IMG/VR virus record: IMGVR_UViG_2778261179_000018
Location: 1 to 24,494 of that record
DNA length: 24,494 nt
DNA from: a virus
Taxonomy: Duplodnaviria > Heunggongvirae > Uroviricota > Caudoviricetes
Reading direction: 5' to 3' (one strand)
Shown here piece by piece: positions 3,052 to 23,994 of the stretch. A program made the position numbers and the translations under genes. Position 1 is the first letter of the stretch. Each line of letters begins with the position of its first letter. The notes under the pieces were generated by a model. That model was not told the DNA's origin. It ran no database searches and was given only the letters and a program-made list of their open reading frames with translations.

Positions 3052-3861
3052 ATGAAAATCGAAAAAAGCCGATTCAATTCGGAGGCCGCCCCTCAACCTG
3101 ACGTTAACCAGGGCGTAATTAACGGTAACGACTTTGCCGCTGTTGTCCCTGTTATTTCCGGTCAGATTGGCGGGCGCGAAACCAATATGGCGAGCGCTAG
3201 AGCACTGCATAAAGCGCTGGGCGTGGGTCGAGACTTCACCACCTGGATTAAAGGGCGCATTAGTCAGTATGGTTTTGCCGCAGGTGTAGATTACATCACC
3301 GTTGAAAATTTGAGCTCACCCGTTTCGGGGAGCGCAAAATTTCGCCAGCAAATCGAGCATGATTACCTTCTCTCGCTGAACATGGCTAAAGAAGTGGCAA
3401 TGGTTGAACGCAACGAACAGGGCCGCGCCGTCCGCCGCTATTTCATCCAGTGCGAGGAAGCGTTACAGCTGAGTGCGCCAGAAATCGCCGCGAAGTACCG
3501 CCGTCACCTCAAAGCCCGCATTGGTGCTGCCAACCTCTTTAAGCCGATGTGCGCTGCTCTGGATGCTGCTCGCGCAGAACAGGGGAAAGAGACGCAAGGC
3601 CGCCACTACAGCAACGAAAGCAACATGATCGCCCGCATCGTGCTGGGTGGCATGACCGCTAAGCAGTGGGCGCAGGTGAACGGTATAGACGGCGAACCTC
3701 GCGATAGCATGAGTGCCGGCCAACTGGAGCACCTCAGCTATCTGGAGAGCACCAACATCACGTTGATCGATATGGGTATGCAGTACAACCAGCGCAAAGC
3801 GGAATTAACCCGCCTGTCTCAGCGCTGGCTGGCTAAACGCATGGGGGTTAACGATGAATAA
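3052..3861 (+). CDS. Phage antirepressor (AntA-like N-terminal domain with KilAC-like C-terminal region)
   Basis: Motif ARALHKALGVGRDFTTWIKGRISQYGFAAGVDYI resembles the AntA/AntB antirepressor domain; 269 aa; RBS GGAG upstream. Confidence 0.7.
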   Translation: MKIEKSRFNSEAAPQPDVNQGVINGNDFAAVVPVISGQIGGRETNMASARALHKALGVGRDFTTWIKGRISQYGFAAGVDYITVENLSSPVSGSAKFRQQIEHDYLLSLNMAKEVAMVERNEQGRAVRRYFIQCEEALQLSAPEIAAKYRRHLKARIGAANLFKPMCAALDAARAEQGKETQGRHYSNESNMIARIVLGGMTAKQWAQVNGIDGEPRDSMSAGQLEHLSYLESTNITLIDMGMQYNQRKAELTRLSQRWLAKRMGVNDE

Positions 3862-5602: not shown

Positions 5603-6167
5603 ACAATCTTATCCGGAAGCTGGCCCCGATGGCGTTATTACCGGCTCCGGGCTGGTGAGCTTTCTTTCGGTAACGGAAAGCCTTAGCCGCGGTGATTATG
5701 ACCGCAACCCGGAGGAAGGCATGGGTCTTGCCTGTGCCGCGCTGGATGGCGTGGCCCTGACGTGGTTCGCGGCAGCGCCAGAACAACATGCTGCTCTCTG
5801 GCGGTGGATTGTTGCGGCGGCATTTGTCGAGGAACAGGTGAAAAATAACGGAAATATCGACGTGATGTGCGAAGATGGCCGCAAAGTTAAGGCAGCTGTC
5901 TATGCCGGGAAATGCGGCGCTATAACCGTTTACCCGGTAGCGGAGCGTGTTGCTCTGGCAAGCCAGGTTGAGGGGTACGCTTTACAGAAATACGGTACTA
6001 CAACGGGTATGGATCTGGCTATCCAGCATTACCAGACGATGCTCGAATGGCGTGATGGCATTTACTGCCTGTCAGATCATGGCCGGGATATTCTTTCCGA
6101 TCTGCACGACAACCTTATCGCCACCATTCACGCCAGTGGTGTTCCTGCGATGCCAACGGAGCACTAA
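5595..6167 (+). CDS. Hypothetical protein
   Basis: 190 aa; RBS AGGGGG upstream; sits directly before the primase in the same operon. Confidence 0.6.
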   Translation: MNKQSYPEAGPDGVITGSGLVSFLSVTESLSRGDYDRNPEEGMGLACAALDGVALTWFAAAPEQHAALWRWIVAAAFVEEQVKNNGNIDVMCEDGRKVKAAVYAGKCGAITVYPVAERVALASQVEGYALQKYGTTTGMDLAIQHYQTMLEWRDGIYCLSDHGRDILSDLHDNLIATIHASGVPAMPTEH

Positions 6168-6171
6168 GCGT

Positions 6172-8856
6172 ATGAAGCGTGCAATTGAGCTTATCCACGA
6201 AGTGAAGCGCCGAACTGCCGGAAGCTGGGAAAGTGTGCTGCCGCAGTGCGGGGTGACGGTTCCGCCGAAAGGTCGTCACGGACCCTGCGCCATCTGCGGC
6301 GGTTCTGACCGCTTTCACTTTATTGACGACCACGGCGGCGGCGAGTGGCATTGTCGCCAGTGTGACGAACCGAATCATGGCGACGGTCTGGATCTCATCG
6401 CCAGAGCGCACGGTATTACCATAACCGCAGCGGCGCAGAAGGTGGCCTCTGTGTTGGGTGTAGATGCCCGGACACCGGAACCGAAGTCGGCCAGAGAGAA
6501 GCCTCAAACGGATATCGCCGGGAAAGTCGCCGGGATGGCCGCTAAAGCTGCGTCCGGACAGTCAGCCTATCTCACATCAAAGGGGCTTCAGTGCCCCTTC
6601 CCGTTGATGCCTGACGGGTCGCTGCTGATGGTGCTGAAAAACGGCGCTGGCGCTGTCACCGGCGCACAGGGGATTAAGCCAGACGGCAATAAGCGGCTGG
6701 TGGCCGGAACGGTGAAGAAAGGCTCCTTCTGTGTGGTTAATTCCGTTGAATCGCCGGAAAAGGTGGTTATCGCTGAAGGACTGGCAACCACGCTCTCAGT
6801 TAACCTGATGCGGCCCGATGCGCTGGCTGTCGTTGCCGTTGATGCCGGGAACCTGCTGCCCGTAGCGGAGGTTATGCGCCGGCGATACCCTGAGGCGCGG
6901 ATCATTATCGCTGCCGATAACGACATAAAGCCGGGAGAGCCAAACACAGGCAAAGAGGCTGCGGATAAAGCTGCTAAAGCCGTCTCTGGCTGGGTGGCTT
7001 TACCGCCAACAGTGAAAAAGGCCGACTGGAACGACTACCACCAGCAGCATGGCCTGGAAGCCGCTACAACGGCGTTTAAGAATTCGATGTATCAACCGCA
7101 GGAGCCTGAAGTGTCCGCGAGACTGCAAGTGATCAACGGAGGGAAGAAAGGCGCATCAAAACCTGAATCTCTGCGATCTCATGTCGAAAGCCGTGCTGAC
7201 GGTATTTTTTGGGTTGAGCCAAAATCAGACAAAGATACCGGGGAAATAACTACCCGTGAAAGCTGGCTGTGTTCTGCTCTGGAGGTCATAGGTACTGGCA
7301 TAGATGACAGTAAAACCCGGTATCTGATCCTGCGCTGGCGCCCATTCGGTTCGAAGGGGGATACTGTCCAGGCAATACCATTTGCTGATATCGGTGAACG
7401 CGAAGGCTGGCGAACGCTCAAGGCTGGTGGGGTGAACGTCACAACCAAAAGTGGTTTACGTGCAACGTTGGCCGACTGGCTGCAGAGCTGTGCCAATGGT
7501 GAGGTATGGCGCATTGCGCATGCTACGGGCTGGCAGTGTGGCGCCTACATCATGCCTGATGGCGAGATCATTGGTACTCCAGATCAACCGGTGCTGTTTA
7601 ACGGACGAAGTTCTGCCGCATCCGGTTATACCACCAGCGGTACTGTTGAGAGCTGGCGAGAGTGCGTTGGACGTCTGGCCTTTGGCAACTACTCGATGAT
7701 GACTGGCGTGGCCGCAGCGCTGGCAGCTCCTTTGATTGGCCTTGCCGGCGCTGATGGTTTTGGTATCCATCTCTATGAGCAGTCGAGCGCGGGTAAGACC
7801 ACCACTGCCAATGTGGCCTCCAGTCTCTATGGCAATCCGGATGTGCTACGCCTCACCTGGTACGGTACTGCGCTGGGGCTGGCGAACGAAGCCGCCGCAC
7901 ATAACGATGCGCTGATGCCGCTTGACGAAATTGGCCAGGGTGCTGACCCGGTGGAGGTCTACAAATCGGCATACGCACTGTTTAACGGCACGGGTAAGCT
8001 GCAGGGAGCGAAGGAAGGCGGAAACCGTGACCTGAAGCGCTGGCGTACTGTGGCCATCAGTACCGGTGAGATGGATCTGGAAACCTTCATCGCGAGCGCC
8101 GGTCGCAAGGCTAAAGCAGGCCAGCTGGTTCGCCTGCTGAATATCCCGATGCGCCGGGCTGTTCGTTTCCATGAACATGCCAACGGCAAACACCATGCCG
8201 ATGCCCTCAAAGATGCATACCAGCATCACCACGGAGTGGCTGGGCGTGAGTGGGTGAAGTGGCTGGCGGACCACCAGCACGAGGCTGTAAGCGCTGTCAG
8301 GGCAGCGGAAGAGCGCTGGCGTAGCCTGATCCCGTCGGATTACGGGGAGCAGGTCCATCGTGTTGGCGCCCGGTTTGCCATTCTGGAGGCCGCACTATTG
8401 TTAGGTAATGTGATCACCGGCTGGGATGAGCAGACGTGTCGGGATGCCATTCAGTACAGCTATAACGCCTGGCTGCGCGAGTTTGGTACCGGCAATAAAG
8501 AACACCAGCAAATTATCGAGCAGACAGAGGCATTCCTGAACGCCTACGGGATGAGCCGTTTTGCACCGTTCCCATATGACCCGACTAGCCTCCCTATCTC
8601 CAACATGGCGGGATACCGGCAGAAAGGCGGGCACGAGACTGACCCGATAGTGTTCTACACCTTCCCGGCAGCCTTCGAAGGGGAGATCGCCCGCGGCTTT
8701 AACTCCCGTCAGTTTGCGGAGGTATTGAAGAAAGCTGGCATGCTGACGCCACCGACTTCAGGCCGGGGATTCCAGAGAAAGTCGCCACGCATTGATGGGC
8801 GACAGATTCGGGTTTATGTCCTGCAGTATCTGCCGGACGACGACCAGCCAGAGTAA
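6172..8856 (+). CDS. Primase-helicase (zinc-binding domain + Toprim + P-loop NTPase; P4 alpha / DUF927-type)
   Basis: Start at MKRAIELIHEV (track ORF begins earlier at 5947 but overlaps the upstream gene). Zinc finger CAICGGSDRFHF...HCRQCD; Toprim acidic motifs VVIAEGLATT and IIIAADNDIKPGE; P-loop-like YEQSSAGKTTT; about 894 aa. Confidence 0.85.
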   Translation: MKRAIELIHEVKRRTAGSWESVLPQCGVTVPPKGRHGPCAICGGSDRFHFIDDHGGGEWHCRQCDEPNHGDGLDLIARAHGITITAAAQKVASVLGVDARTPEPKSAREKPQTDIAGKVAGMAAKAASGQSAYLTSKGLQCPFPLMPDGSLLMVLKNGAGAVTGAQGIKPDGNKRLVAGTVKKGSFCVVNSVESPEKVVIAEGLATTLSVNLMRPDALAVVAVDAGNLLPVAEVMRRRYPEARIIIAADNDIKPGEPNTGKEAADKAAKAVSGWVALPPTVKKADWNDYHQQHGLEAATTAFKNSMYQPQEPEVSARLQVINGGKKGASKPESLRSHVESRADGIFWVEPKSDKDTGEITTRESWLCSALEVIGTGIDDSKTRYLILRWRPFGSKGDTVQAIPFADIGEREGWRTLKAGGVNVTTKSGLRATLADWLQSCANGEVWRIAHATGWQCGAYIMPDGEIIGTPDQPVLFNGRSSAASGYTTSGTVESWRECVGRLAFGNYSMMTGVAAALAAPLIGLAGADGFGIHLYEQSSAGKTTTANVASSLYGNPDVLRLTWYGTALGLANEAAAHNDALMPLDEIGQGADPVEVYKSAYALFNGTGKLQGAKEGGNRDLKRWRTVAISTGEMDLETFIASAGRKAKAGQLVRLLNIPMRRAVRFHEHANGKHHADALKDAYQHHHGVAGREWVKWLADHQHEAVSAVRAAEERWRSLIPSDYGEQVHRVGARFAILEAALLLGNVITGWDEQTCRDAIQYSYNAWLREFGTGNKEHQQIIEQTEAFLNAYGMSRFAPFPYDPTSLPISNMAGYRQKGGHETDPIVFYTFPAAFEGEIARGFNSRQFAEVLKKAGMLTPPTSGRGFQRKSPRIDGRQIRVYVLQYLPDDDQPE

Positions 8857-9253: not shown

Positions 9254-9536
9254 TTCGCTGTTGTTACGCGGGGAGAGCGTACCTGATGCCTAGACAAGCC
9301 ATCGCCGAATCACCGGGCTGGCATCAACCTACACATGCAACCTGTAAGTACGACTAAAGCCGTAAAATGGTATGGTCGACAATGCGATTTTTTTTGGCGT
9401 GATGTGCTTTACGGCTAGCAAAAAACGATTATTGGTTAACATTATTGTGTTTTATGTTTACATAAAATGGTTTATGATTTACATGTGTTCGAAAGGGATG
9501 ACTCTTTTTGAAGTCATCAATTTTTCCGGAAAAGGT

Positions 9537-10643
9537 ATGAAAGTGTTAGTTGACGATATTGTTGCTCTTATAGAAGCGTCTTTAGATGCAAACTATTCTG
9601 AAGTACGTAGTGTGAGCAATCGAATTGCCAAAGCTATAAGTACCGATAATATGGATGGTGCGAAAAAAATAAAATCTGTTTTACGACGTAAGGGGGTGCC
9701 GTTACGTAGTTCAGGTTACAGCGATAGCCTACCCGTTGATCCAAAGTCAAGAATGCCCTTGGTAGAAGAGCATCAATGGCCTGTCACGCCTCTTTTCTTA
9801 GAGGAGAGCGAACAGGATACCTTTAACACTTTTGTTGAAAGTGTAAAGCAACAAGATAAGCTGATTGCGAATGGACTAGTTGGTAAACTAGGTTTGCTGC
9901 TTTCTGGGCCGCCAGGAACAGGTAAGACATTGATTGCAGGACATATAGCGTCACAACTTAATAGACCACTTTATGTGGTGAGATTAGATTCTGTAATTTC
10001 TTCACTTCTTGGTGATACAGCAAAGAACCTAAGACAGATCTTTGATTTTGTACCGTCAAAAAATGGTGTTTTATTTCTCGACGAAGTTGATGCCGTTGCA
10101 AAAGTAAGAGATGACCGCCATGAAATAGGAGAACTGAAAAGAGTAGTAAATACATTAATTCAAGGTTTAGACTCTCTTGATGATAGTTCTATAGTTATAG
10201 CTGCGACCAATCACTCTGAATTACTTGATCCTGCTATCTGGAGACGTTTTCCTTTTAAAATACGTCTCGATTTCCCTTCCCAGGAATTACGAGAGTTCTT
10301 ATGGAGTCATTTTTTATTCGGTGATAAAGGCCCGATTAAGGAGTTAAAGGCGTTAGGTATTGTTTCAAATGGACTAAGTGGTGCTGATATTGAAACTATA
10401 GCTATTTCGGCGAGGAGACAATCAGTATTATCGAATACACCTTTGAATATTCCTTCTGTATTGTTATCAATTATGGACAGTGAATACAATAATTCAGTGA
10501 TGCCTAACACTAAGGAACCAAGTTTACATACCAAGAAAAGATTGATAAATCTTTTATACGAAGCAAAATCTTTCACACAGACAGAAATTGCCAGCCTATT
10601 AGGTTTGAGTAGGCAGACAATTTCAAGCCATTTAAAGGAGTAA
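9537..10643 (+). CDS. AAA+ ATPase (classic clade) with C-terminal HTH; IetA-like candidate
   Basis: Walker A GPPGTGKT, Walker B VLFLDEVD, sensor-1 AATN, arginine-finger region DPAIWRRF; C-terminal HTH-like TQTEIASLLGLSRQTISSHLKE. Start ambiguous (ATGs at 9483, 9498, 9537); the track start 9372 is rejected. Strongly AT-rich. Confidence 0.8.
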   Translation: MKVLVDDIVALIEASLDANYSEVRSVSNRIAKAISTDNMDGAKKIKSVLRRKGVPLRSSGYSDSLPVDPKSRMPLVEEHQWPVTPLFLEESEQDTFNTFVESVKQQDKLIANGLVGKLGLLLSGPPGTGKTLIAGHIASQLNRPLYVVRLDSVISSLLGDTAKNLRQIFDFVPSKNGVLFLDEVDAVAKVRDDRHEIGELKRVVNTLIQGLDSLDDSSIVIAATNHSELLDPAIWRRFPFKIRLDFPSQELREFLWSHFLFGDKGPIKELKALGIVSNGLSGADIETIAISARRQSVLSNTPLNIPSVLLSIMDSEYNNSVMPNTKEPSLHTKKRLINLLYEAKSFTQTEIASLLGLSRQTISSHLKE

Positions 10644-10647
10644 TGCT

Positions 10648-12876
10648 ATGGCAGATGGTAATAACCGTAAGAAAGTGTTGAACCCTCTACTTTCGTATTT
10701 GGAGGACCCTGCGCCAAAAGCGATTAATGGTGGAGGCAAGAATGCTGACGATATTCAGTGGGCTAGGTTAGATATTCAAAAAGAGACTTTAAGTAAAAGT
10801 CTTAAAAGTATCAGTGAAAACAAATCTATTATAGCTCACGCTGGTAAAATCCATCTGCTAATTAAAATGTTTGATGATTCATTAGCACCTTCATGGACCC
10901 CGACGGATTTATTTGAAACAAATCCTTTTACTAGACTAGTTTCTCCTGCATACAACGGATTTTTAGTTGAAACAAGCAAAGAAAAGATACCTGAAATTAT
11001 CAAGAAGATAAAAACTGCTAGCAATGATAGAATTAAAGTAGATGTGTCACGACTTGAAAGTATAAAGGCATTTGATAGGAGCGCAGTTTTAAGAGGGAAA
11101 AGCTTATCTGACTTTGATTTTAGTAATGATGGAAACCAGTTTAATATTTGGATTTTACCATTTCATGATCCAAATGCGCGCTTTTCGGTTGCTGAGGAGT
11201 TAGAGGATCTTGTTGATGAGGATGTTATTACGTTTGGTGAATCCATTTATGACAATGTTTTTGATGGAGAAAAAAGAACCTCTGGTACTCGTTCCTTCAA
11301 AAGAAAGTTAAAGCAATATCTATCGCATGGACATTTAACATTTACAGCAGTAGTAAAAAATAATAATGACTTCATAAAGTTAATTGGATCCGGAGCTATA
11401 TATAGAATCGAACCGGTTAAGAAGGTGACAACTAGGTCATTGCCTCCTGGTGAAGGAGAAGAGCCTTCACCAAAACTGATTAATAAAGAAACCGCTCCCG
11501 TTGTAGTTATAGTTGATGGTGGTTGTTCATCGAAGTCTTACTTGCCATTGAATGTGATTAACATTAATCCGCTTATTGATAGCTATCATGCAGATTTAAA
11601 ACATGGCAATTGCGTAACTTCATTGGTTTGCCAGGGCGGAGCTTGGAATAATAAATTACACTTACCACAATTAGAGTGTAAATTTGTTAGCGTACAAGCT
11701 ATAAGTAAGAGAGATGTAAGCCCTCAACCAACCACCGAGCAGTTCATTAATTATCTAAGAGTTGTGGCGGAGAAAACTAAAAATGTTTCTTCTGTTTGGA
11801 ATCTATCATTTAATGAGGCTTCGCCATCCGATAGTGTTGATGAAATTAGTAGGTTGGGACATGAAATAAGTCTTCTGGCTCGCGAATTTAATATATTACC
11901 CGTGATTTCAATTGGTAATGTTAACTCTGACAACCCAACTACCTTATGTCCTCCTGCTGATTGTGAAGCGGCATTGACTGTATCAGGTAGAAAAGCATCT
12001 ATTTTAGGTGAGATCTCTTCACATTGTCCAAAAAGTTTGCGTGGACCTGCTCCTGGTGGAATGAAGAAGCCTGAGCTTTCTTGGTTTTCTAAATTGAGGA
12101 TGTTAGGTGGAGATGTTAAGACAGGTACAAGCTTTAGTGCGCCCTTGATATCAAGCATTGCGGCTCACACGTTCAAAAATCTAAAAGAGCCAACTCCAGA
12201 TTTAGTTAAGGCATTACTGATAAACAAAGCTGAAGGTATTGAGCATGATCTTGGCCTAGGTTGGGGGTCTCCATGGAGGAAAGGGAGTTCTATGCCATGG
12301 ATGTGTGAAGATGGAACTGTGACATTAGCTTGGAATTCTAAATTAAAAGCTGGTAGTGCATATTATTGGAATAATATTCCTATCCCTCCTGAAATGATTG
12401 TAGATGGAAAGATTAAAGGTAGTATTATTCTTACTGCCATCTTAAAGCCAGTAGTTTCTGAATTAGCAGGGGATAACTATTTTTCAACAAGATTACAATG
12501 TGCACTACAGCATGTAAATAATGCAGGCAAGGCCAAAAATCTTCTTGGTACTATGAAAGAGTCAACCGAAAAGGAAATTGATTCCAGAAGTGAATTAGCT
12601 AAATGGAGCCCGATTAGACATCATGGTAAAAGCTTTAAAGGGGTTGCCGTTGATAATAACAAAGTAAGGCTTTATGCGCGTATTTTTACAAGAGATCTTT
12701 TCCAATTTAATTATGCGAGTCATCATGAGTTAGATGAACAAGATGTGGCATTTGTTTTGACCTTTAAAAGTCCTAGCGACGATCCATCAATTTACGACTC
12801 AATGAAGCAACAACTTGGTAACAAGGTCAAAGCTGCGATAATAGAACAGGATATTATTCTGGATAGTGATGTTTGA
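10648..12876 (+). CDS. S8 family subtilisin-like serine peptidase; IetS-like candidate
   Basis: 742 aa; RBS AAGGAG 8 nt upstream; 4-bp gap after the ATPase gene. Candidate catalytic motifs in subtilase order: Asp VVVIVDGGCS, His HGNCVTSLV, Ser GTSFSAPLISSIAAH. AT-rich like its partner. Confidence 0.8.
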   Translation: MADGNNRKKVLNPLLSYLEDPAPKAINGGGKNADDIQWARLDIQKETLSKSLKSISENKSIIAHAGKIHLLIKMFDDSLAPSWTPTDLFETNPFTRLVSPAYNGFLVETSKEKIPEIIKKIKTASNDRIKVDVSRLESIKAFDRSAVLRGKSLSDFDFSNDGNQFNIWILPFHDPNARFSVAEELEDLVDEDVITFGESIYDNVFDGEKRTSGTRSFKRKLKQYLSHGHLTFTAVVKNNNDFIKLIGSGAIYRIEPVKKVTTRSLPPGEGEEPSPKLINKETAPVVVIVDGGCSSKSYLPLNVININPLIDSYHADLKHGNCVTSLVCQGGAWNNKLHLPQLECKFVSVQAISKRDVSPQPTTEQFINYLRVVAEKTKNVSSVWNLSFNEASPSDSVDEISRLGHEISLLAREFNILPVISIGNVNSDNPTTLCPPADCEAALTVSGRKASILGEISSHCPKSLRGPAPGGMKKPELSWFSKLRMLGGDVKTGTSFSAPLISSIAAHTFKNLKEPTPDLVKALLINKAEGIEHDLGLGWGSPWRKGSSMPWMCEDGTVTLAWNSKLKAGSAYYWNNIPIPPEMIVDGKIKGSIILTAILKPVVSELAGDNYFSTRLQCALQHVNNAGKAKNLLGTMKESTEKEIDSRSELAKWSPIRHHGKSFKGVAVDNNKVRLYARIFTRDLFQFNYASHHELDEQDVAFVLTFKSPSDDPSIYDSMKQQLGNKVKAAIIEQDIILDSDV

Positions 12877-13352: not shown

Positions 13353-13538
13353 ATGTCCAGACAAAACGTAAACGTAAAACCGGTATTACTCAGTCACGAG
13401 CAGATAAAGGCGCTGAGTGACATTCAGGAGCAGCACCGCAAAACATCCAGTATCGGCGTTGCGCCAACTATCCATGAGATTGCACGCGGTCTGATGGATA
13501 AAGCGCTGGCGTCTCTCTCCGACGGAGTGAAAGTATGA
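13353..13538 (+). CDS. Small phage protein preceding the tape measure gene
   Basis: 61 aa; RBS GGGGGTGG upstream; ATGA overlap with the downstream gene. Confidence 0.5.
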   Translation: MSRQNVNVKPVLLSHEQIKALSDIQEQHRKTSSIGVAPTIHEIARGLMDKALASLSDGVKV

Positions 13539-15535
13539 ATGCTGAAACTCTGAAGGACTTTTTAATTAGCCTGGGCTTCAAAGTAGATGACGCCGGCGCC
13601 AGAAAATTTGATGCCATCGTTACCGGCGCGACACTCAAGGCGATCGAGCTCGGCACCAAAGTAGAGCTGGCCGCTGCGTCTGTGGTGGCCTTTACCGCGA
13701 AAGTCGCCAGCGGTCTCGATAACTTGTACTGGGCCTCTCAGCGCACTGGCGCAACGGTGCAGGGCATCAAGCAGATCGGCTTTGCCGTCAGCCAGATGGG
13801 CGGCAGTGTGGATGCCGCCCGCGGCTCTCTCGAAAGCCTGGCTCAGTTCATCCGTACCAGCTCCGGAGCCGAGGGTTTCCTGAATCGCCTTGGCGTTCAG
13901 ACCCGCGATGCCAGCGGAAACATGCGGGACATGACGACGATCTTTACCGGCGTCGGCCAGCGTCTCAGCAGCATGCCGTACTATCGCGCTAATCAGTACG
14001 CACAGATGCTCGGCATGGATGAAAACACGCTGCTGGCTATGCGTCGAGGCATTGGCGAGTACATGGGCCAGTATAACGCCATGAAAAAGGCTATCGGGTT
14101 TAATCCTGATCAGGCCGCCGCGGCATCTAACCGCTTTATGACCTCGTTGCGGTCGTTCGGCGAAATGGCCGGCATGGCGCGGGACAAAATCGGCTCTAAC
14201 CTCGCTGGTGGTCTAGCCGGTGCCATTGATAACCTTCGCCGCCAGATCCTTGATAACTTCCCGAAAATAGAGCGCACCATTAACGCAGTGGTGAAGGGTA
14301 TTCTTTGGATGGGGGAGGCCGTCGGACGGGTGGTCTATCGTCTGATACAGGCCGCGGGTGATATCCGGGACTGGTGGAAAGGGCTTGATGAAGACTCCAG
14401 GAAACTCATCGGCACGCTGGGTGGAATGCTGGTGGCCTGGCGATTGCTGAATGCCGCTATGCTCGCCTCTCCGATTACCTGGGTTCTGGCGCTTGCTGGT
14501 GCGCTTCTGCTGCTCTATGACGATTACAAGACGTGGAAAGAAGGCGGTAAAAGCCTCATTGACTGGGATAAGTGGGAGCCGGCGATAAACTTTGCGCTGA
14601 CTGCCATTGAAAAACTATGGACTGGTGTGAAGCGTCTTAAAGACGAGTTGATTAAACTTTTCGGTATCGACCCTAAAACATGGTCGATTAAGTTCGAATT
14701 CGACAGTCTGAAGAAGCAGTTCAATGAGCTGAGCAAGATGCTGGATACCATAGGCAAGCTTCTCAATGCGATTGATGAAGGTCGCTGGTCAGACGCGGCA
14801 GCTTACGCCAGACAACTGCTGAATCAGGGCGGCGAGCCGACACCATCAAACGCGGTGACAGACAGCGCCAATAGCGCTGCGGACTGGATTCAGAATAAAA
14901 CCGGGTTTGACCCCCGCAGTATTGGTCAAGCCGTTACTGGCTGGTTTGGTGGTGAAGCTACTCAATACGGGCAGTCTGTTAAACGACCTCAGGCCTCTAA
15001 AGCTGGCGCTCAGCTGCTGGGTTGGATGGCTCCGATGATGGGTAAACTGGAGGCGTTGTATAACCTCCCTGCGGGCCTGCTCCGTAGTGTTGCTCTCGCT
15101 GAGTCAAACGGCAATCAGTTTGCTGTGTCTGGCGCTGGCGCACAGGGAATGTTTCAGTTTATGCCGGGTACTGCCCGCGATATGGGCCTGCGCGGCAACG
15201 ATGTGTTTAACCCGATGAAAGCGGCGGAAGCGGCGGCGCGGTATCTCTCGATGCTCCTGCAGAAGAACGGCGGCGATCTGAATAAAACTCTGGCCTCCTA
15301 TAACTGGGGCATCGGTAATGTGCAGAAGTACGGCATGGCGCTGATGCCCGGGGAGACCCGTCAATATATCCCGAAAGTGCTCAGCAATATGCCGGGCAGC
15401 GGGGCAACGCTGAACCAGGAAACCAATATCCATATTCACGGCGTCAATAATCCGCGAGAGGCGGCCAATCTGGTGGTTGAAAGGCAGAACACTGTAAACA
15501 ATCGGGCAACCCAGGATCTGGGGAGGAGTAACTGA
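13535..15535 (+). CDS. Phage tail tape-measure-like protein with C-terminal lytic transglycosylase (SLT) domain
   Basis: 666 aa; coiled-coil-like N-terminal region, hydrophobic segment LIGTLGGMLVAWRLLNAAMLASPITWVLALAGALLLL, and SLT motif block AESNGNQFAVSGAGAQGMFQFMPGTARDMG...YNWG. Confidence 0.7.
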   Translation: MNAETLKDFLISLGFKVDDAGARKFDAIVTGATLKAIELGTKVELAAASVVAFTAKVASGLDNLYWASQRTGATVQGIKQIGFAVSQMGGSVDAARGSLESLAQFIRTSSGAEGFLNRLGVQTRDASGNMRDMTTIFTGVGQRLSSMPYYRANQYAQMLGMDENTLLAMRRGIGEYMGQYNAMKKAIGFNPDQAAAASNRFMTSLRSFGEMAGMARDKIGSNLAGGLAGAIDNLRRQILDNFPKIERTINAVVKGILWMGEAVGRVVYRLIQAAGDIRDWWKGLDEDSRKLIGTLGGMLVAWRLLNAAMLASPITWVLALAGALLLLYDDYKTWKEGGKSLIDWDKWEPAINFALTAIEKLWTGVKRLKDELIKLFGIDPKTWSIKFEFDSLKKQFNELSKMLDTIGKLLNAIDEGRWSDAAAYARQLLNQGGEPTPSNAVTDSANSAADWIQNKTGFDPRSIGQAVTGWFGGEATQYGQSVKRPQASKAGAQLLGWMAPMMGKLEALYNLPAGLLRSVALAESNGNQFAVSGAGAQGMFQFMPGTARDMGLRGNDVFNPMKAAEAAARYLSMLLQKNGGDLNKTLASYNWGIGNVQKYGMALMPGETRQYIPKVLSNMPGSGATLNQETNIHIHGVNNPREAANLVVERQNTVNNRATQDLGRSN

Positions 15536-16122
15536 TGGATATTCTTTCAACGCTGTTTCAGCAAAATAGCCGCAGAATCGGGTTAATGGTGCCAAGCGTT
15601 GTTGTTTCTGAAAAACACACTGACATGCTGGAGATTACCGAGCATCCCGTTGAACGCCCCACATCTGCTGGGGCTGGTTTTATTGCTGATCATGCGTATC
15701 GCCGACCCTCTGAAGTGGTAATGGAAATTGGCTTTGCTGGTGGTGGTTCACTGCTGGATTTCTACGACACCCGAAATATTGGACTGTCGACGCCGCTCAA
15801 CAGCATGGGCCCGAAAGAGGTTTATGCGGAGCTGCTGAATATGCAGCAAGGTAAGCAGTTGCTCGACGTCACCACGGGCAAGCGGTTGTACAAAAATATG
15901 CTGATCCGCTCTCTGGAGGTTACCACTGACCGAACTACTGAAAATGTATTATCGGCCACAGTGACACTTCGCGAAGTCATTATCACTCAGACAAAAAGCA
16001 TCAAGGTGGCTGATAAAGCCGATATGAAATATGGCGTAAACACCTCAGCCGTAATTAACACCGGAACTAAAACGCCAGTACCGAAAAATGAGTCCATTCT
16101 TTCCAGCGTGTTTGGAGGTTAA
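15535..16122 (+). CDS. Phage tail/baseplate structural protein (unassigned)
   Basis: 195 aa; TGATG-coupled to the upstream gene; RBS GGAG; position within the tail operon. Confidence 0.55.
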   Translation: MDILSTLFQQNSRRIGLMVPSVVVSEKHTDMLEITEHPVERPTSAGAGFIADHAYRRPSEVVMEIGFAGGGSLLDFYDTRNIGLSTPLNSMGPKEVYAELLNMQQGKQLLDVTTGKRLYKNMLIRSLEVTTDRTTENVLSATVTLREVIITQTKSIKVADKADMKYGVNTSAVINTGTKTPVPKNESILSSVFGG

Positions 16123-16428
16123 ATGTCCGTATCGGAAATTCCGTTAGCGCCCGATAGTCAGAGTTTTAATATCACCCTAGCTGGCGTTGATTATCAAATG
16201 CGCGTGGTCTGGCGCGGGGTATGTTGGTTCCTCGACCTGATGGACAGTACCGGTACGCTGATGATTGGCGGTATTCCGCTGATCACCGGCACTAATCTGC
16301 TGGCGCAGTACCATTATCTCGGCCTCGGGTTCTCGCTTTATGTGGTCTGTGATGACCCGGCCAGCGAAAACCCAACGCAGTTTGATCTTGGCATTAAAAG
16401 CCACCTGTACGCGAAAACTGAGGATTAA
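16123..16428 (+). CDS. Phage tail/baseplate protein (small, unassigned)
   Basis: 101 aa; RBS GGAGG; immediately follows the previous stop. Confidence 0.5.
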   Translation: MSVSEIPLAPDSQSFNITLAGVDYQMRVVWRGVCWFLDLMDSTGTLMIGGIPLITGTNLLAQYHYLGLGFSLYVVCDDPASENPTQFDLGIKSHLYAKTED

Positions 16429-16430
16429 CG

Positions 16431-17513
16431 ATGCCAAGAAACTGGAACCGACATTTTGAACTACAGCTCATCGACGATAACGGCGAGGGTATCAGCCTTA
16501 GCGACTTTAAAGTTGCCTTTAGCGTAGAGCGAAACGATAACCGATGGCCAGCTATGGCGCTGGTCAAAATCTATAACCTTGCCCCCGAAACCCAGAACCG
16601 TATCATGCGCCGTGAATACAGCAAGATAACCCTGATAGCGGGTTATGACGGGCTGGATAGTGCTTCCTCTGATACCGTAAGCGCCAGCGAGGTAGGGAAG
16701 GTGCGCTACGTAACAAATGACACCATAAATAGCCCTGATGGCTCAAATTACGGTGTCATTTTCAGCGGTGATATTGCTTTCACTGTGGAAGGCAAAGACA
16801 ACATTACCGATCGGTACGTCCGTATACAGGCATTTGACGGCGACAAGGCCTTTATGGAAGCGCAGATCAGCACCTCGCTGGCCGCCGGCTATACGCTGAG
16901 CGATGAGTACAATTTGCTCATGAAGCACCTTGAACCGTTCGGTATCCGTAAGGGGGTTGAGCCGGTTTTCCCTGGTACAGTCTATCCGCGAGCTGCGTCA
17001 TACCACGGCCTTGTGAACAACTATCTTTCCCGACTGGCTGATGACCTTCGTGCGACATGGCAATTCAGCTTTGGAAAGGTTGACTTCATTCAGCAGGATG
17101 TGGCGAAACACCGTGCAATCGTCCTGAACGCTGATACCGGGCTGGTGGGCATGCCGCAGCAGACCATTGGCGGAGGGGTGAATGTTACGTGTCTTATTAA
17201 TTCCTTCATTCAGTTACACGGGCTTATTCAGTTGGATCAGGCGTCAGTGTATCGTGCACAGTTGAGCAATGAGCAGGTTTTACAGGCTGGTGGTATTGCG
17301 CCGGAACAGGAAATTAACGGCAACCTTGTCACAAGTGGTCTGGCGCAGAGAGAGAATCCGGCGAGTGTTGCGACAGACGGTGTTTATATCGTCCGCTACC
17401 TCTCATATCGAGGCGATACGCGCGGGCAGGACTGGTACATGGATTTAGCTTGCGAAGCCCGAGGAAATGCTGACGTTCCCTCATCGTCTTACTTACTCAA
17501 ACAGGATTCTTAA
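16431..17513 (+). CDS. Putative baseplate hub protein (gp27 / late-control-D-like)
   Basis: 360 aa; RBS GAGGA; lies between the tape measure and the spike gene, the usual hub position. Assignment is by context and size, not by a recognised motif. Confidence 0.5.
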   Translation: MPRNWNRHFELQLIDDNGEGISLSDFKVAFSVERNDNRWPAMALVKIYNLAPETQNRIMRREYSKITLIAGYDGLDSASSDTVSASEVGKVRYVTNDTINSPDGSNYGVIFSGDIAFTVEGKDNITDRYVRIQAFDGDKAFMEAQISTSLAAGYTLSDEYNLLMKHLEPFGIRKGVEPVFPGTVYPRAASYHGLVNNYLSRLADDLRATWQFSFGKVDFIQQDVAKHRAIVLNADTGLVGMPQQTIGGGVNVTCLINSFIQLHGLIQLDQASVYRAQLSNEQVLQAGGIAPEQEINGNLVTSGLAQRENPASVATDGVYIVRYLSYRGDTRGQDWYMDLACEARGNADVPSSSYLLKQDS

Positions 17514-17863
17514 TGAAAAAAGCAATTCTCATTATTGGCATGGTTGCTTCAATGGCGTGCAGCGCGAAAGCGCCCTTAACGCATCGGTATGATTGCGGAG
17601 CCTTTCGGTTTGAGATAATCGAAAACTCCATGTCGAAGATAAACGGCGAGTATGTAACTTCACAAAAAATAGCGTCGCTGGGGGAGCGTGGAGCCAAAAT
17701 AGATATGACCCTCACATCTGCTAAAGACGGTAATTTCTACGGCTTCGAATATGTTCATCCTGACGGCAGCAATAAGCGTTGGCTAAATGTTGAGTTAATC
17801 CGCAGTAGCATGGATCAGCCGCGGATTATTGGTACGTTTATGTGCAAACGTGTTGAGAGTTGA
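17513..17863 (+). CDS. Small secreted protein or lipoprotein within the tail module
   Basis: 116 aa; N-terminal signal-like MKKAILIIGMVASMACSAK with a Cys after the hydrophobic core; TAATG overlap with the upstream gene. Confidence 0.5.
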   Translation: MKKAILIIGMVASMACSAKAPLTHRYDCGAFRFEIIENSMSKINGEYVTSQKIASLGERGAKIDMTLTSAKDGNFYGFEYVHPDGSNKRWLNVELIRSSMDQPRIIGTFMCKRVES

Positions 17864-17872
17864 GGGGGAAGC

Positions 17873-18616
17873 ATGGCCACAGCAAGACCAATTGAAGATC
17901 GCGAGGTGTATGACTCCATCCTGAAGGGGGCGAAACAATCAATTCGTGTGTCAATGCCGGGGGTTATTAAGTCTTTTGACCCGGAAACCGTTACATGCGT
18001 TGTGGAAGTCTCGATATATATCCCTAAGCCAGAGTCAGCGGAAGGCAAATCCATTGACCGGCTGGCGCAGGACAATGTTTTCTACCCGCTTATTTTAGAT
18101 GCGCCGGTTATTTTTCCCCGCGGTGGCGGCTGTACGCTAACGTTTCCCATTAGTGCCGGCGATGAGTGCCTGGTGATATTCGCCGATCGCTGTATCGACT
18201 TCTGGTGGCAGAATGGCGGGGTGCAAAATGGCTCAAGGGGGAGAATGCACGATTACTCGGATGCGTTTGTTATCCCCGGCCCGCAGTCGCAGGCGAAGAA
18301 AATCAGCGGCATCAGCACTACGGCCGCGCAGCTGCGTACCGACGACGGCACCGCATTCATTGAGGTGTCCGCCGGCGGGGATATCACTGCCACCACCGCC
18401 GGCAACGCGACTATTAACGCCCCGGAAATCATTCTCAATGGCAACGTAACGATTAACGGCAACCTGTCGCAGGGCATGGGCGATAGCGGCGGCACAGCGA
18501 CGATGCACGGCCCTGTTACCGTAACCAACGATGTGACAGCAGGTGGTAAGAGCCTGATGACGCACACGCATGGAGGGGTTGAGACTGGCAGTGGGAATAC
18601 AGGAGAGCCGCAGTAA
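17873..18616 (+). CDS. Baseplate central spike protein (gpV / gp5 / gp138-like)
   Basis: 247 aa; RBS GGGGGAAG; Gly/Thr-rich beta-helix-like C-terminus (ITATTAGNATINAPEIILNGNVTINGN) ending in an HxH motif (MTHTHGG), as at the metal-binding tip of phage spikes. Confidence 0.6.
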   Translation: MATARPIEDREVYDSILKGAKQSIRVSMPGVIKSFDPETVTCVVEVSIYIPKPESAEGKSIDRLAQDNVFYPLILDAPVIFPRGGGCTLTFPISAGDECLVIFADRCIDFWWQNGGVQNGSRGRMHDYSDAFVIPGPQSQAKKISGISTTAAQLRTDDGTAFIEVSAGGDITATTAGNATINAPEIILNGNVTINGNLSQGMGDSGGTATMHGPVTVTNDVTAGGKSLMTHTHGGVETGSGNTGEPQ

Positions 18617-19154
18617 GTTATTTTCCTCTGGCTGGCAATACTGGCCACCAGCGATAGGCGCAGGGATGCGCTACCGCCTTCATTGGTAAGAATTGGTAAG
18701 GTTAAAACGAGGTTTGCGCGCCACCGGCAGTGGCTCACAACTTTGCGCCTGCGCAGTTCGTACACGCCAATCAGCTGCGTACGTTTAACGTACGGACGTC
18801 GTAACCTTTTGATAGAGTCGGTTATCGCGATTCGCGATAAATGGCTAACCCTCTGATTCTTTCGAAAACCTGCACCGCAGGAACTCGCCCAACTGGCTGA
18901 TAAATCGTGATTATAACTATTCGTTAGGACTGGATCGCGCCCGCCGAGCTCACTGGCTTGCTTGAACTTATGTGATTGAGTGTCATTTCAGCCAGAGCTG
19001 GTGGCTATCGTTTTCGACCAAACTCACGATGAGTTGTGAGCTATCACCAGCAGTCATCAGTCCGCACTTTACAGCGCGCATTATTCTGGGTTATATGCGA
19101 CTATTAACAGCAGTAGATGGCAACAGACGATAATAAACGGCAGGAGATTGGATC

Positions 19155-19613
19155 ATGGCAGTTACAACCCTAAATAGCGTGGCGGACTATCTGCTGTGCT
19201 TTGCTCAGGAGCACGGGGATGTTATGACGCCGCTGAAACTGCAAAAAATGGTGTTTTACGCTGATGCCTGGTATATGGCTCTGAACGATGGCGAAGAGTT
19301 GATTGCTGATCGGTTTGAGGCGTGGGTACACGGCCCGGTAGCGAGAGATTTGTATATCAGGTTCGCCGATTACAAATGGCAGCCGATCACCCGTGAAATA
19401 CCATGCCCGGATCTCCCTAAGGGTGTTTCTGAACATCTGGACGAAATTTATAATGTATTCGGCGGATTCTCGGCTTATGAGCTGGAGCAGATGACGCATC
19501 AGGAAAAACCCTGGCTGATAGCTCGCGGTGATATTCCATCAGATGCGCCTTGCCGGAATGACATCGACAAAGGCGTAACCGCTGAATTCTACCGCGGCAT
19601 GATGGATGCCTGA
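19155..19613 (+). CDS. Panacea-domain (DUF4065, SocA/GepA-like) protein; putative antitoxin
   Basis: 152 aa; RBS AGGAGA 8 nt upstream; hallmark LKLQKMVFYADAW ... GPV ... Y of the DUF4065 family. Confidence 0.75.
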   Translation: MAVTTLNSVADYLLCFAQEHGDVMTPLKLQKMVFYADAWYMALNDGEELIADRFEAWVHGPVARDLYIRFADYKWQPITREIPCPDLPKGVSEHLDEIYNVFGGFSAYELEQMTHQEKPWLIARGDIPSDAPCRNDIDKGVTAEFYRGMMDA

Positions 19614-19615
19614 AC

Positions 19616-20053
19616 GTGGGCAAAGGGAAAATCAAGGCAAGCAAGATACCGGCAGCGGGTAATCAAATCGTTGCCGGAACGCCCATCCCCACCACTACAA
19701 CCCTCAGTTTCTCTTTCCAGTACATTGATCCCGCACATGCTAAGTTCGGTTTTGCGGGACAGGCGACTGCTTACTTTTGCAAGGTGCTGGAGCGTCTTAA
19801 AGATATATCAACTCTGACGCCGCTTGAGTTTACGACAAACCGAAATGCGGCTCTCAAATCGCACTGTATCGAGTGGAAAACAACCTCCGAGCCTGACGGC
19901 TTTACTCACCTCAACGAGCAGTTCCAGAGCTATACGCCTTATCAGTTTGCCATATCTCGCAATGAGCACGGCCGCATACACGGCTTTTTCATTGGCAATG
20001 TGTTCTACGTCGTATGGCTTGACCCCAACCACCAGCTCTACCCCGGCGAATAG
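19616..20053 (+). CDS. Hypothetical protein, candidate toxin partner of the Panacea-domain protein
   Basis: 145 aa; GTG start 2 bp after the upstream stop (operon arrangement); no recognisable domain. Confidence 0.5.
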   Translation: MGKGKIKASKIPAAGNQIVAGTPIPTTTTLSFSFQYIDPAHAKFGFAGQATAYFCKVLERLKDISTLTPLEFTTNRNAALKSHCIEWKTTSEPDGFTHLNEQFQSYTPYQFAISRNEHGRIHGFFIGNVFYVVWLDPNHQLYPGE

Positions 20054-20158
20054 CCAACCCATTGTTTATTCCGAAAACCGCCAATGGCGTGCACCGGGCT
20101 CATGTAATAGCCCCCGTTTAAACCGGACACTTCACCAGTAAGACATAGGCATAGAGCT

Positions 20159-20563
20159 ATGTTTAAGGAGTGTCCTGTGCAAAGAATCGAAGTGATCACT
20201 GGCGAGCAAAAGCGCCGCCGTTATACTCCCGAAGAGAAAGCCCGTTTTGTAGCGCTCGCCATGCAGCCCGGCTACACCGTCTCACTCGTTGCCCGGCAAT
20301 ATGGCATCACTCCCAGTCTTCTTTTTAAGTGGAAACGACTCATGAACGAGGGTGGCAAGTCTGCGATCGCCGCAGGCGACGAGGTGGTCAGCGTCTCCGA
20401 GCTCAAAGCGCTGGAGAAAAAAGTCAAACAGCTTGAACAGATGCTGGGACGCAAAACGATGGAAGCCGAAATCCTTCGCGACGCGCTTGAGATAGCCCAG
20501 GCAAAAAAGTTGATATCGCGCATGCCATTGCTGCCACCGGACGATATCCCCTCATCCGAATAG
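20159..20563 (+). CDS. IS3-family transposase OrfA (HTH DNA-binding subunit)
   Basis: EQKRRRYTPEEKARFV...GYTVSLVARQYGITPSLLFKWKR and a leucine-zipper-like C-terminus; slippery AAAAAAG at 20503-20509 for a programmed -1 frameshift. Confidence 0.85.
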   Translation: MFKECPVQRIEVITGEQKRRRYTPEEKARFVALAMQPGYTVSLVARQYGITPSLLFKWKRLMNEGGKSAIAAGDEVVSVSELKALEKKVKQLEQMLGRKTMEAEILRDALEIAQAKKLISRMPLLPPDDIPSSE

Positions 20564-20568
20564 CAGAA

Positions 20569-21384
20569 GTGCTCTGTGTATCGCGTTCGAATCTGTATGA
20601 CCGGTTACTGGATAAAAGCCAGCACCGGTCAGCCCGCTACAGCAAAGACGATGACGCCCGACTGTTACCGCTTATCCGCCAGATATGCAGCGAGCGGGCA
20701 ACAAACGGCTATCGTCGCGTGACTGCGCACCTCAATCGTGCGCTGAAGGAACATAACTGGCGAGTTAACCCCAAACGTATTTATCGGATCATGCAGGCGA
20801 ATAACCTGTTACTGGCAAAATCTGGCCATAAAAAGCCAGAACGCTGCCATACCGGCAGCGTCGTGACACTTAAGTCGGATACGCGCTGGTGCTCAGATGG
20901 CTTCGAAATCCGCTGCTGGAATCGGGAAGTCGTGCGGGTGGTGTTCAGCCTTGACTGCTGTGATCGTGAAGCCATCAGTTGGTCGGCCACAGCAGGCGGT
21001 ATAAACAGCGTTATGGTGCAGGATCTGCTGACAGAGAGTGTAGAAAAGCGCTTTGGAAATACGCTTTACCTGCCACACGCCGTTGAGTGGCTGACCGATA
21101 ACGGCAGTTGCTACGTAGCGGACGCGACAAGGACGTTCGCTGCTTCACTCGGGTTCATCGTGTGTACGACGCCAGTGCGTAGCCCGGAGAGCAATGGGAT
21201 GGCTGAATCGTTCGTGAAAACGTTCAAGCGTGACTACGTGTATGTGAATGACCTGCCGGATGCGGTGACCGTAATGGAAAAACTGACAGAATGGATGGAA
21301 GACTATAATAACTGGCATCCCCATAAAGGACTGAAAATGCAGTCACCGAGAGAATACAGAAGCTCATTACTAGCTATAAATTAA
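20569..21384 (+). CDS. IS3-family transposase OrfB (DDE catalytic domain); probably expressed as an OrfAB fusion
   Basis: ORF-track coordinates; the reading frame stays open upstream to the slippery site in the -1 frame; integrase-core-like block WLTDNGSCYVA and conserved C-terminal region. Confidence 0.8.
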   Translation: MLCVSRSNLYDRLLDKSQHRSARYSKDDDARLLPLIRQICSERATNGYRRVTAHLNRALKEHNWRVNPKRIYRIMQANNLLLAKSGHKKPERCHTGSVVTLKSDTRWCSDGFEIRCWNREVVRVVFSLDCCDREAISWSATAGGINSVMVQDLLTESVEKRFGNTLYLPHAVEWLTDNGSCYVADATRTFAASLGFIVCTTPVRSPESNGMAESFVKTFKRDYVYVNDLPDAVTVMEKLTEWMEDYNNWHPHKGLKMQSPREYRSSLLAIN

Positions 21385-21662
21385 CCGTGTCCGATTTAGC
21401 GGGGGCAACTCCAGCTCAATCTGTATATGGACAAAACAACGTTAAACACGGTTAGAGGTTCCGACGAAATCCGTCGGTAGCTGTGAAGATGATGGAAAGA
21501 GCCATCATGAGGAAAATCAACAAAGTCCAGCTTTGGACTGTAAGCCGGATTTGGCTTGCGTAAGGCTAGTGACTCAAAGTCGCGAGGTTAACCGAGTATC
21601 TCTGAGCGAGTCGGATAGCCTACCCTCTTTAAGAGGGTCAGTAGATACGGGGCTGGACTAAG

Positions 21663-23526: not shown

Positions 23527-23583
23527 GTGATTTGCTGGCTGGTGGTTGTGAGAATTCTGGACAGTTCTGGACGGATGGGGAAT

Positions 23584-23994
23584 ATGGCGACATTAAAGGC
23601 TGAGTGCAAAATATTTATTGTTCAATCCATTGCGTGCTACGAAACGCCTTCTCAGGTCGTGGAGTCCGTAAGGGAGAAATTTGGTATTAAAATCACCCGC
23701 CAGCAGGTCGAATCACATGATCCGACGAAGGTCAGCGGTAAGGGGCTGGCTCAAAAATGGGTAGACATATTCAACGCTACCCGCGCGCGCTTTCTCAAAG
23801 AAACCTCGGACATTCCGATCGCCAACAAGGCCTATAGTCTGCGCGTCCTCGACAGAATGGCTGTTAACGCTGAAAGCATGAATAACTACGGAATGACAGC
23901 CGACATTCTGGAGCAGGCAGCCAAAGAGGTTGGCGGAGTGTACGCCAGCCGGATGAACGTGGAGACTGCAGGCAAAAGCATCAGTGACGCTTAG
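23584..23994 (+). CDS. DUF2280-like phage protein (packaging-associated, putative DNA-binding)
   Basis: Start at MATLKAECKIFIVQSIACYETPSQVVESVREKFGIKITRQQV, which resembles DUF2280 N-termini as I recall them; 136 aa. Confidence 0.55.
   Translation: MATLKAECKIFIVQSIACYETPSQVVESVREKFGIKITRQQVESHDPTKVSGKGLAQKWVDIFNATRARFLKETSDIPIANKAYSLRVLDRMAVNAESMNNYGMTADILEQAAKEVGGVYASRMNVETAGKSISDA

Follow-up and report, generated by a model that had tools for sequence, protein, structure and literature searches.

A Panacea gene pair in a phage-like island whose partner is predicted to be an RNase of RelE-type fold

Introduction

What kind of system is encoded by the two adjacent genes at positions 19155-20053 of IMG/VR virus record IMGVR_UViG_2778261179_000018, a 24,494-nucleotide (nt) stretch of tailed-phage (Caudoviricetes) DNA that we refer to, at its full length, as the window? 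The first gene was read as encoding a Panacea-domain (DUF4065) protein and the second as encoding a 145-residue partner of no recognisable family. The original prediction, made from the sequence alone, was a toxin-antitoxin or defence pair in which the partner might be an undescribed toxin. A catalogue of such pairs already exists: from 20,209 genomes, Kurata et al. (2022, PNAS) predicted 1,268 PanA-PanT pairs in 88 toxin clusters (PMC8832971). We therefore call the two genes panA and panT, and use these names for any Panacea gene and its partner.

Our analysis bears out a pair of the toxin-antitoxin or defence type, as the two genes are tightly linked and conserved. We think it probable that they form a PanAT module resembling type II toxin-antitoxin systems, with an RNase as toxin, a Panacea protein that neutralises it directly, and a role in abortive infection or stabilisation. 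Three lines of evidence carry this reading: the strict linkage of the two genes, the predicted fold of the partner with its conserved candidate active site, and the homology of the partner to the largest predicted cluster of Panacea partners.

The two genes

The open reading frame (ORF) listing and the sequence place panA at 19155-19613 (+ strand; ATG start, 152 aa, TGA stop) and panT at 19616-20053 (+ strand; GTG start, 145 aa). The gap between the TGA of panA and the GTG of panT is 2 nt, which agrees with the spacing and start codon originally proposed. Both genes are real and under purifying selection: relative to the Raoultella terrigena orthologues (94% nucleotide identity), PanA has a ratio of nonsynonymous to synonymous substitution rates (dN/dS) of 0.097 and the partner one of 0.062.

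The assignment of the first gene to Panacea also holds. PanA matches the Pfam family SocA_Panacea (PF13274) at E=6.8e-18, scoring 66.1 bits against a gathering score of 25.7 and covering positions 1-112 of the 113-position profile, and it contains LKLQKMVFYADAW...HGPV. It matches phrog_1281 in PHROGs as well (E=3e-35) and is 83% identical to an E. coli 'Panacea domain-containing protein' (WP_001371753.1). The NCBIfam equivalog SocA_antitoxin (NF047745) aligns with residues 8-98 at 59 bits, far below its cutoff of 190, which leaves PanA among the Panacea proteins but outside the SocA orthologues. With 152 aa, it is too short for an extra helix-turn-helix (HTH), PAD1 or zinc-binding domain (ZBD). 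We therefore predict a stand-alone Panacea protein, free of any N-terminal HTH, PAD1 or ZBD, that serves as an antitoxin or a sensor.

SocA belongs to SocAB of Caulobacter crescentus, a type VI toxin-antitoxin system and the source of the founding Panacea/DUF4065 antitoxin. It acts as a ClpXP adaptor, leading to the degradation of SocB, a toxin that binds DnaN. SocA shares its Pfam domain with PanA, but SocB is unrelated to the partner in the window. The closest phage homologue of PanA (45% identity) is found in Cylindrospermopsis phage Cr-LKS4 (L010 1495-1953), where it has no panT-type partner and lies directly between two annotated CRISPR arrays of a 101-kb cyanophage genome.

The GTG start of panT is supported by the N-terminus of the protein, which is conserved across 62 homologues and has a nearly invariant M1. 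Many public annotations probably miss this start, the partner family having no curated model. They are 61-aa or 89-aa calls made from an internal start (e.g., with I85 read as M), among them database entries P0237, P0239, P0242, P0269 and P0283. We considered whether these could be decayed toxin genes and rejected the idea, as they are N-terminally shortened calls of ORFs that are intact at full length. An RNA antitoxin at the pair was also considered and rejected, as an Rfam scan of 18600-20150 found no RNA.

Linkage of the pair across genomes

We assessed co-occurrence in a sample that combined the loci around eight divergent homologues with the hits of an IMG/VR scan with the family profile (41 viral contigs). 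A Panacea ORF lies directly upstream of the toxin gene, on the same strand, in 54/54 toxin-carrying loci, whose toxins fall into 22 types when grouped at 90% identity and 11 when grouped at 50%. Co-occurrence of the homologues had been put forward with the original prediction as a test that could refute it, and in this sample it is complete. In gene calls at these other loci, panA and panT overlap by 1-32 nt.

The places in which the pair is found are varied. In E. coli it occurs in an island near the pao genes and in the immunity region of a lambdoid prophage, between a CI-like repressor and pRha/kilR/gam/recT. It lies at the end of a Proteus/Providencia prophage beside Phd/Doc and HipA, directly after gpU-gpX-gpD in a P2-like prophage of Endozoicomonas, beside sugar-nucleotide genes on a Patescibacteria contig, and just downstream of the pyruvate dehydrogenase (pdh) genes on a metagenomic contig. 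Further instances are in islands of Klebsiella/Raoultella and on viral contigs of 100-140 kb. Because the flanking genes are unrelated from locus to locus, the pair behaves as an autonomous mobile two-gene unit. Megablast of the locus gave no match to phages, and against plasmids it matched with nothing but the end of the neighbouring insertion sequence (IS), described below.

Sequence relatives of the partner

The partner had been called unrecognisable, and with respect to curated sequence families this stands: neither the partner nor any of 62 aligned family members has a Pfam match at E<=0.3, and the same proteins give no NCBIfam/Pfam match to ParE_toxin, HigB-like, YafQ, YoeB, Gp49 or MqsR at E<=1. 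A sequence-profile search of the PDB with the partner returned chance matches alone (E>0.5), and tblastn against 50,697 phage records returned no match.

Two groupings do come into view. The partner scores 31.4 bits against the NCBIfam model MAG6450_fam (NF046006), below the curated cutoff of 40, and this model is matched below threshold by 62/62 of the aligned members (best E=1.3e-8). Judged by these profile scores, MAG6450_fam is a remote relative of the partner family. MAG6450 itself appears in the literature as an entry in a table of transposon mutants, annotated 'CHP' and carrying no functional information. The partner also matches phrog_8366 (E=6.5e-6), as do 61/62 of the aligned members.

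The family is large. A word-indexed search recovered 88 homologues from Enterobacterales, Aeromonas, Endozoicomonas and Patescibacteria, all of approximately 145 aa and all unnamed. Exhaustive searching with a profile puts its size at no fewer than 1,365 clusters at 50% identity (E<=1e-3), 750 of them with E<=1e-10.

Predicted fold and candidate active site

Structure prediction is where the partner ceases to be unrecognisable. An AlphaFold2 model built on the 62-sequence alignment is confident, with a mean predicted local distance difference test score (pLDDT) of 86.8 and a predicted template modelling score (pTM) of 0.75. In this model a disordered, basic tail (residues 1-29) leads into a short strand formed by a conserved FSF (31-33), which is followed by two helices (51-64 and 69-74), a small helix (101-104) and three strands (108-112, 120-126 and 129-136), the remainder being a C-terminal tail. 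The predicted fold is the alpha/beta fold of RelE, HigB and YafQ (BECR). A Foldseek search of the viral predicted structures in BFVD with the same model gave nothing at E<0.4.

Compared with the ribosome-dependent mRNA interferases RelE, HigB, YoeB and YafQ, the partner is approximately 55 residues longer. It has an extra strand, an insert at approximately residues 75-105 and, at its N-terminus, the disordered tail. The antitoxins differ too: RelE-type systems pair with RelB, HigA, YefM or DinJ, whereas the antitoxin in the window is a Panacea protein.

Residue conservation was measured over 222 family members. G119, G123, W134, D136 and H139 are each conserved in 99% of members, R120 in 98%, H83 and Q110 in 96%, R60 in 95%, H122 in 90%, Y142 in 86% and E117 in 65%. 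None of the 22 toxin types lacks H83, Q110, D136 or H139, even among viral relatives with 26-36% identity, and R120 is present in all types except one (L055). H83, R120, H122, D136, H139 and Y142 fall on the last strands and the tail of the model. We infer that H83, R120 and H139 would be the equivalent of a known H-R-H triad, and that these three residues, with Q110 and D136, most likely make up an RNase active site. The partner is accordingly best described as most likely an RNase of the mRNA interferase kind.

A protein with a RelE/ParE fold could instead be a ParE-like toxin, which would poison DNA gyrase rather than cut RNA. The structure matches argue otherwise, in that RelE, HigB, YoeB and YafQ all rank above every ParE match. 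The invariant His/Arg/His/Asp set of the partner does as well, since ParE proteins are not known to have such a catalytic set. This set resembles the RNase triads of YafQ (H-D-H) and NsnC (H-R-H) (PMC12065111). We consider a gyrase poison very unlikely.

The polarity of the pair can be questioned in a similar way. The roles might be reversed or shared, with the Panacea protein harmful and the downstream protein a modulator, or the pair might be an anti-defence or regulatory module of the phage or island. PanA was itself toxic in three of the pairs tested by Kurata et al. (PMC8832971), its homologues are called 'GepA-like toxin' in some phage records, and the Cr-LKS4 homologue stands between its CRISPR arrays with no panT-type partner. 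Against this, the antitoxin-first order, the enzyme-like conservation of the downstream protein and its toxin-type fold all fit the usual polarity, and nothing in the analysis indicates anti-defence activity. Of the explanations discussed here, this is the one to which we give least credence.

Comparison with Menshen NsnC and with AarT

The H-R-H triad to which we liken H83, R120 and H139 is that of Menshen, a three-gene system. The C-terminal domain of its NsnC protein (PB-BECR1) is a BECR RNase with an H-R-H triad and has YafQ, with an H-D-H triad, as its best structural match (PMC12065111). Positions 223-280 of the PADLOC NsnC profile align with residues 83-141 of the partner, a segment that includes H83, R120 and H139. 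The likeness is confined to this domain: NsnC spans 284 positions and carries an inactive-PIN (inPIN) domain at its N-terminus, but the partner is too short to contain an inPIN and aligns over 58/284 positions only. NsnC also works together with NsnA (ParB-DUF262) and NsnB (an ABC ATPase), whereas Pfam finds neither gene in the window.

Another comparison is AarT of Acinetobacter guerrae, the toxin of node D3 in the NetFlax network, which was seeded on Panacea partners. AarT (WP_152878172.1) is described as having no HHpred match and an mRNA-interferase fold, and as validated to be toxic and to inhibit translation (PMC10440598). The antitoxin of AarT is an AAA ATPase, whereas that of the window is Panacea. 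Node D3 and the partner may belong to the same superfamily. Enterobacterales genera do not appear in the portion of the NetFlax supplements that was covered.

Relation to PanT cluster T1

The closest link to a catalogued system is to T1, the largest predicted cluster of Panacea partners. According to the parts of the catalogue that we covered, T1 has members in Firmicutes, Actinobacteria, Bacteroidetes, Cyanobacteria, Proteobacteria and Mollicutes, and includes proteins from Klebsiella cf. planticola B43 (WP_042711679.1), E. coli MOD1 and Salmonella phage Emek, all three in pairs with a 'noNTD' PanA and antitoxin-first order (PMC8832971). The T1 proteins that were tested are labelled 'mRNase' in Table S1 of the supplementary information (PMC8832971). 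Our family profile matches the Emek T1 protein (YP_006560566.1) with an hhalign probability of 96.6% (E=5.7e-10, 109 columns) and an hmmsearch score of 30.6 bits, on which basis the partner in the window is homologous to T1 and is itself probably a member. The sub-threshold matches to MAG6450_fam, a Mycoplasma-named family, fit with the Mollicutes members of T1. In the portion of the Kurata et al. supplements that was covered, WP_032283080 and WP_001371753 are not found.

The idea of an undescribed toxin class therefore does not survive, as the partner is homologous to a PanT cluster labelled 'mRNase'; moreover, NCBI already lists this same 145-aa protein under the name 'MULTISPECIES: hypothetical protein [Enterobacteriaceae]', from Klebsiella michiganensis and others (60 contigs).

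The Emek pair of phage vB_SemP_Emek (YP_006560565.1/YP_006560566.1) has the same layout as the pair in the window, with a stand-alone Panacea protein first and an adjoining or overlapping partner of 140-160 aa. The two partners have in common a basic N-terminal tail, an FSF.Y motif and strand, an L.RL..LS..T helix and a C-terminal F.V(I/V)WLD....LY strand. The similarity is nevertheless distant (30.6 bits). The Emek-type partner has E, A, V and F where the family in the window has H83, R120, H122 and H139, and it does not have the NEHGRIHGF motif of that family. The Emek pair lies at L009 1495-2368 and has a counterpart in E. coli W4 (L057).

Several findings weigh against an active RNase toxin neutralised by PanA. 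Three T1 proteins have been tested and none was validated as part of a complete toxin-antitoxin pair: the C. cadaveris protein (WP_074844970.1) was toxic and was not neutralised by its own PanA, and the E. coli MOD1 and phage Emek proteins were non-toxic in E. coli (PMC8832971). The literature searched contains no toxicity or RNase assay of the partner family, and no anti-phage phenotype of the pair is known. Sequence profiles show no link between the partner family and the curated RelE/ParE families (Pfam gives nothing), and when E. coli YafQ, YoeB and HigB are aligned with the family profile in hhalign, the probabilities are at most 0.2%. The NsnC profile match is also weak, at E=0.0025 for the partner in the window, with 29/62 family members matching and a best E=7.5e-5.

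The two negative toxicity tests may say little about the branch in the window. An in-frame TTG at L009 1925 in the Emek ORF gives a gap of exactly -20, and the E. coli MOD1 T1 pair is listed with a gap of -20 (PMC8832971). The 147-aa form of the Emek protein that starts at this TTG is known as 'MULTISPECIES hypothetical protein [Escherichia]' (612 contigs), and the Emek pair is carried by E. coli genomes at 99% identity or more in 44 cases. The MOD1 protein (WP_077635758.1) was not matched to the Emek type by accession, and the support for their being the same is circumstantial, consisting of the -20 gap and the common 147-aa form. Both negative tests are likely to have sampled a single, triad-less branch of T1. 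We therefore do not count these tests against possible toxicity of the branch in the window.

The same results can be read in another way. The pair could be a conserved module in which the partner does not arrest growth by itself, being either a latent effector that depends on a trigger from phage or host or a non-toxic protein that binds RNA or regulates. Two of the three tested T1 proteins showed no toxicity in E. coli, for none of the three was a complete toxin-antitoxin pair validated (PMC8832971), Panacea is proposed by NetFlax to be mainly a sensor (PMC10440598), and one pair lies inside a housekeeping pdh locus. However, the two non-toxic proteins appear to be one Emek-type protein, in which E, A and F replace H83, R120 and H139. 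In the family in the window these residues are nearly always retained, and this suggests an active enzyme. The strict pairing with PanA (54/54 loci) also fits a need for neutralisation. We regard a partner that is harmless by itself as unlikely, while giving it appreciable weight.

Proposed mechanism and expression

Returning to the RNase toxin with a neutralising Panacea protein, we picture the module working as follows. The two genes would be co-transcribed from a promoter approximately 60 nt upstream of panA. Their translation is probably coupled, since a mere 2 nt separate the panA stop codon from the panT start codon in the window and the genes overlap by 1-32 nt elsewhere. The panT product would cut mRNA, probably on the ribosome, and thereby stop translation. 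PanA would bind the toxin directly and hold it inactive, by analogy with other PanATs, for which direct neutralisation by a stand-alone Panacea protein has been shown (PMC10440598). Such binding might be through the family-specific N-terminal tail of the toxin and its FSF strand.

In the loci covered, the pair is always inherited as a unit, on prophages, satellite-like islands and defence islands among other places. The likely role of such a module would be phage defence by abortive infection and/or the stabilisation of mobile elements, with Panacea as the part that senses the trigger. We favour defence because the anti-phage genes IetA and IetS lie in the same island and because, elsewhere, the pair occurs in prophage immunity regions and at prophage ends. 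A more elaborate version combines these elements: the partner would be a catalytically intact branch of T1 and an H-R-H BECR RNase like the NsnC domain, the negative tests would have sampled the triad-less branch, and PanA would be a phage-sensing switch for abortive infection, carried as cargo by prophages and satellite-like islands. This combined scenario is possible, but we put it forward tentatively and with more doubt than conviction.

The putative promoter, read from the sequence, is of the sigma-70 type and lies at 19068-19097 (+ strand), with a -35 element TTTACA at 19068-19073, an 18-nt spacer and a -10 element TATATG at 19092-19097. In alignment, both motifs are kept upstream of the orthologous pair in Raoultella (L008) and E. 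coli (L001). A consensus scan found no convincing + strand promoter for the pair and no terminator after it; this scanner demands a T at position 6 of the -10 hexamer, which is why the putative promoter was not called. A Shine-Dalgarno sequence (AGGAGA, 19142-19147, + strand) stands 7 nt before the panA ATG and is kept in the same two loci.

A short palindrome, GGTGA-GCTA-TCACC, is located at 19034-19047 (+ strand), some 20 nt ahead of the putative -35 element. The Raoultella region has it too, as does the orthologous region of E. coli with a single change. The palindrome is a possible operator, but PanA has no recognisable DNA-binding domain.

Genomic surroundings

The original prediction placed the pair alone between a truncated tail module and an IS. 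The neighbours are as described, but "alone" needs qualification, as this island also encodes an anti-phage defence pair, IetAS, 6.3 kb upstream of the Panacea pair. It consists of the AAA ATPase IetA (9372-10643, + strand; PADLOC E=3.5e-105) and the subtilase IetS (10648-12876, + strand; PADLOC E=5e-70).

"Truncated" likewise needs qualification. The tail-tip block (13535-18616, + strand) encodes a 666-aa SLT-domain protein, a Dit-like protein, a Pam3 gp18-like plug, unassigned ORFs of 360 aa and 116 aa, and a gpV-like spike with an Apex motif, whose gene ends at 18616. It consists of tail-tip genes only, with no head, tube, sheath, wedge or fibre genes. From the SLT gene through the Panacea pair, however, the window is 94% identical to a Raoultella terrigena contig (L008) that has no IS. 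Since the block and the pair are kept together there, what looks like truncation is a conserved state. The block might belong to a satellite-like element.

The IS is an IS3-family element of 1,311 bp (20103-21413), with orfA at 20159-20563 and orfB at 20569-21384. The element ends in inverted repeats, TGTAATAGCCCCC and TGGAGTTGCCCCC, and a 5-bp direct repeat, GCTCA, stands on either side of it (20098-20102 and 21414-21418). The Raoultella locus, which is otherwise collinear, has no copy of the element, whereas many plasmids of Klebsiella and Pantoea carry copies that match its left end exactly. We considered whether the IS disrupts the pair and rejected this, as it begins 49 nt after the stop codon of panT and so leaves the pair intact.

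At the other end of the window are an integrase gene (1-1254) and, directly after it, an int-alpA RNA motif (1263-1329, + strand; Rfam score 53.3 bits against a gathering score of 35.8). Pfam identifies AntA at 3052-3861 and a primase-helicase (DUF927) at 5947-8856. Similarity to the Raoultella island stops at approximately 23545, and a DUF2280 protein is encoded at 23527-23994 (+ strand; E=4.6e-45). The start of this gene at the end of the similarity suggests a junction with another phage-like element.

Significance

In the published network of partner swapping among toxin-antitoxin systems, the Panacea pairs form the largest group, and T1, the biggest cluster of Panacea toxins, has neither a validated member nor a curated domain model. 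Our analysis supplies a T1-related family with a predicted RelE/BECR fold and a testable candidate site (H83, R120 and H139, with Q110 and D136). The tested T1 proteins without H83, R120 and H139 offer a possible reason for the negative tests. What is new is therefore the predicted fold, the candidate H-R-H active site and the rationale for the negative assays, the PanAT kind itself having been catalogued in 2022.

These results leave current concepts unchanged and fill in a known picture. They suggest that one RNase module is common to two-gene Panacea pairs and the three-gene Menshen system. If it is true that the pair gives abortive-infection immunity in Klebsiella and Raoultella, it would also be relevant to phage therapy.

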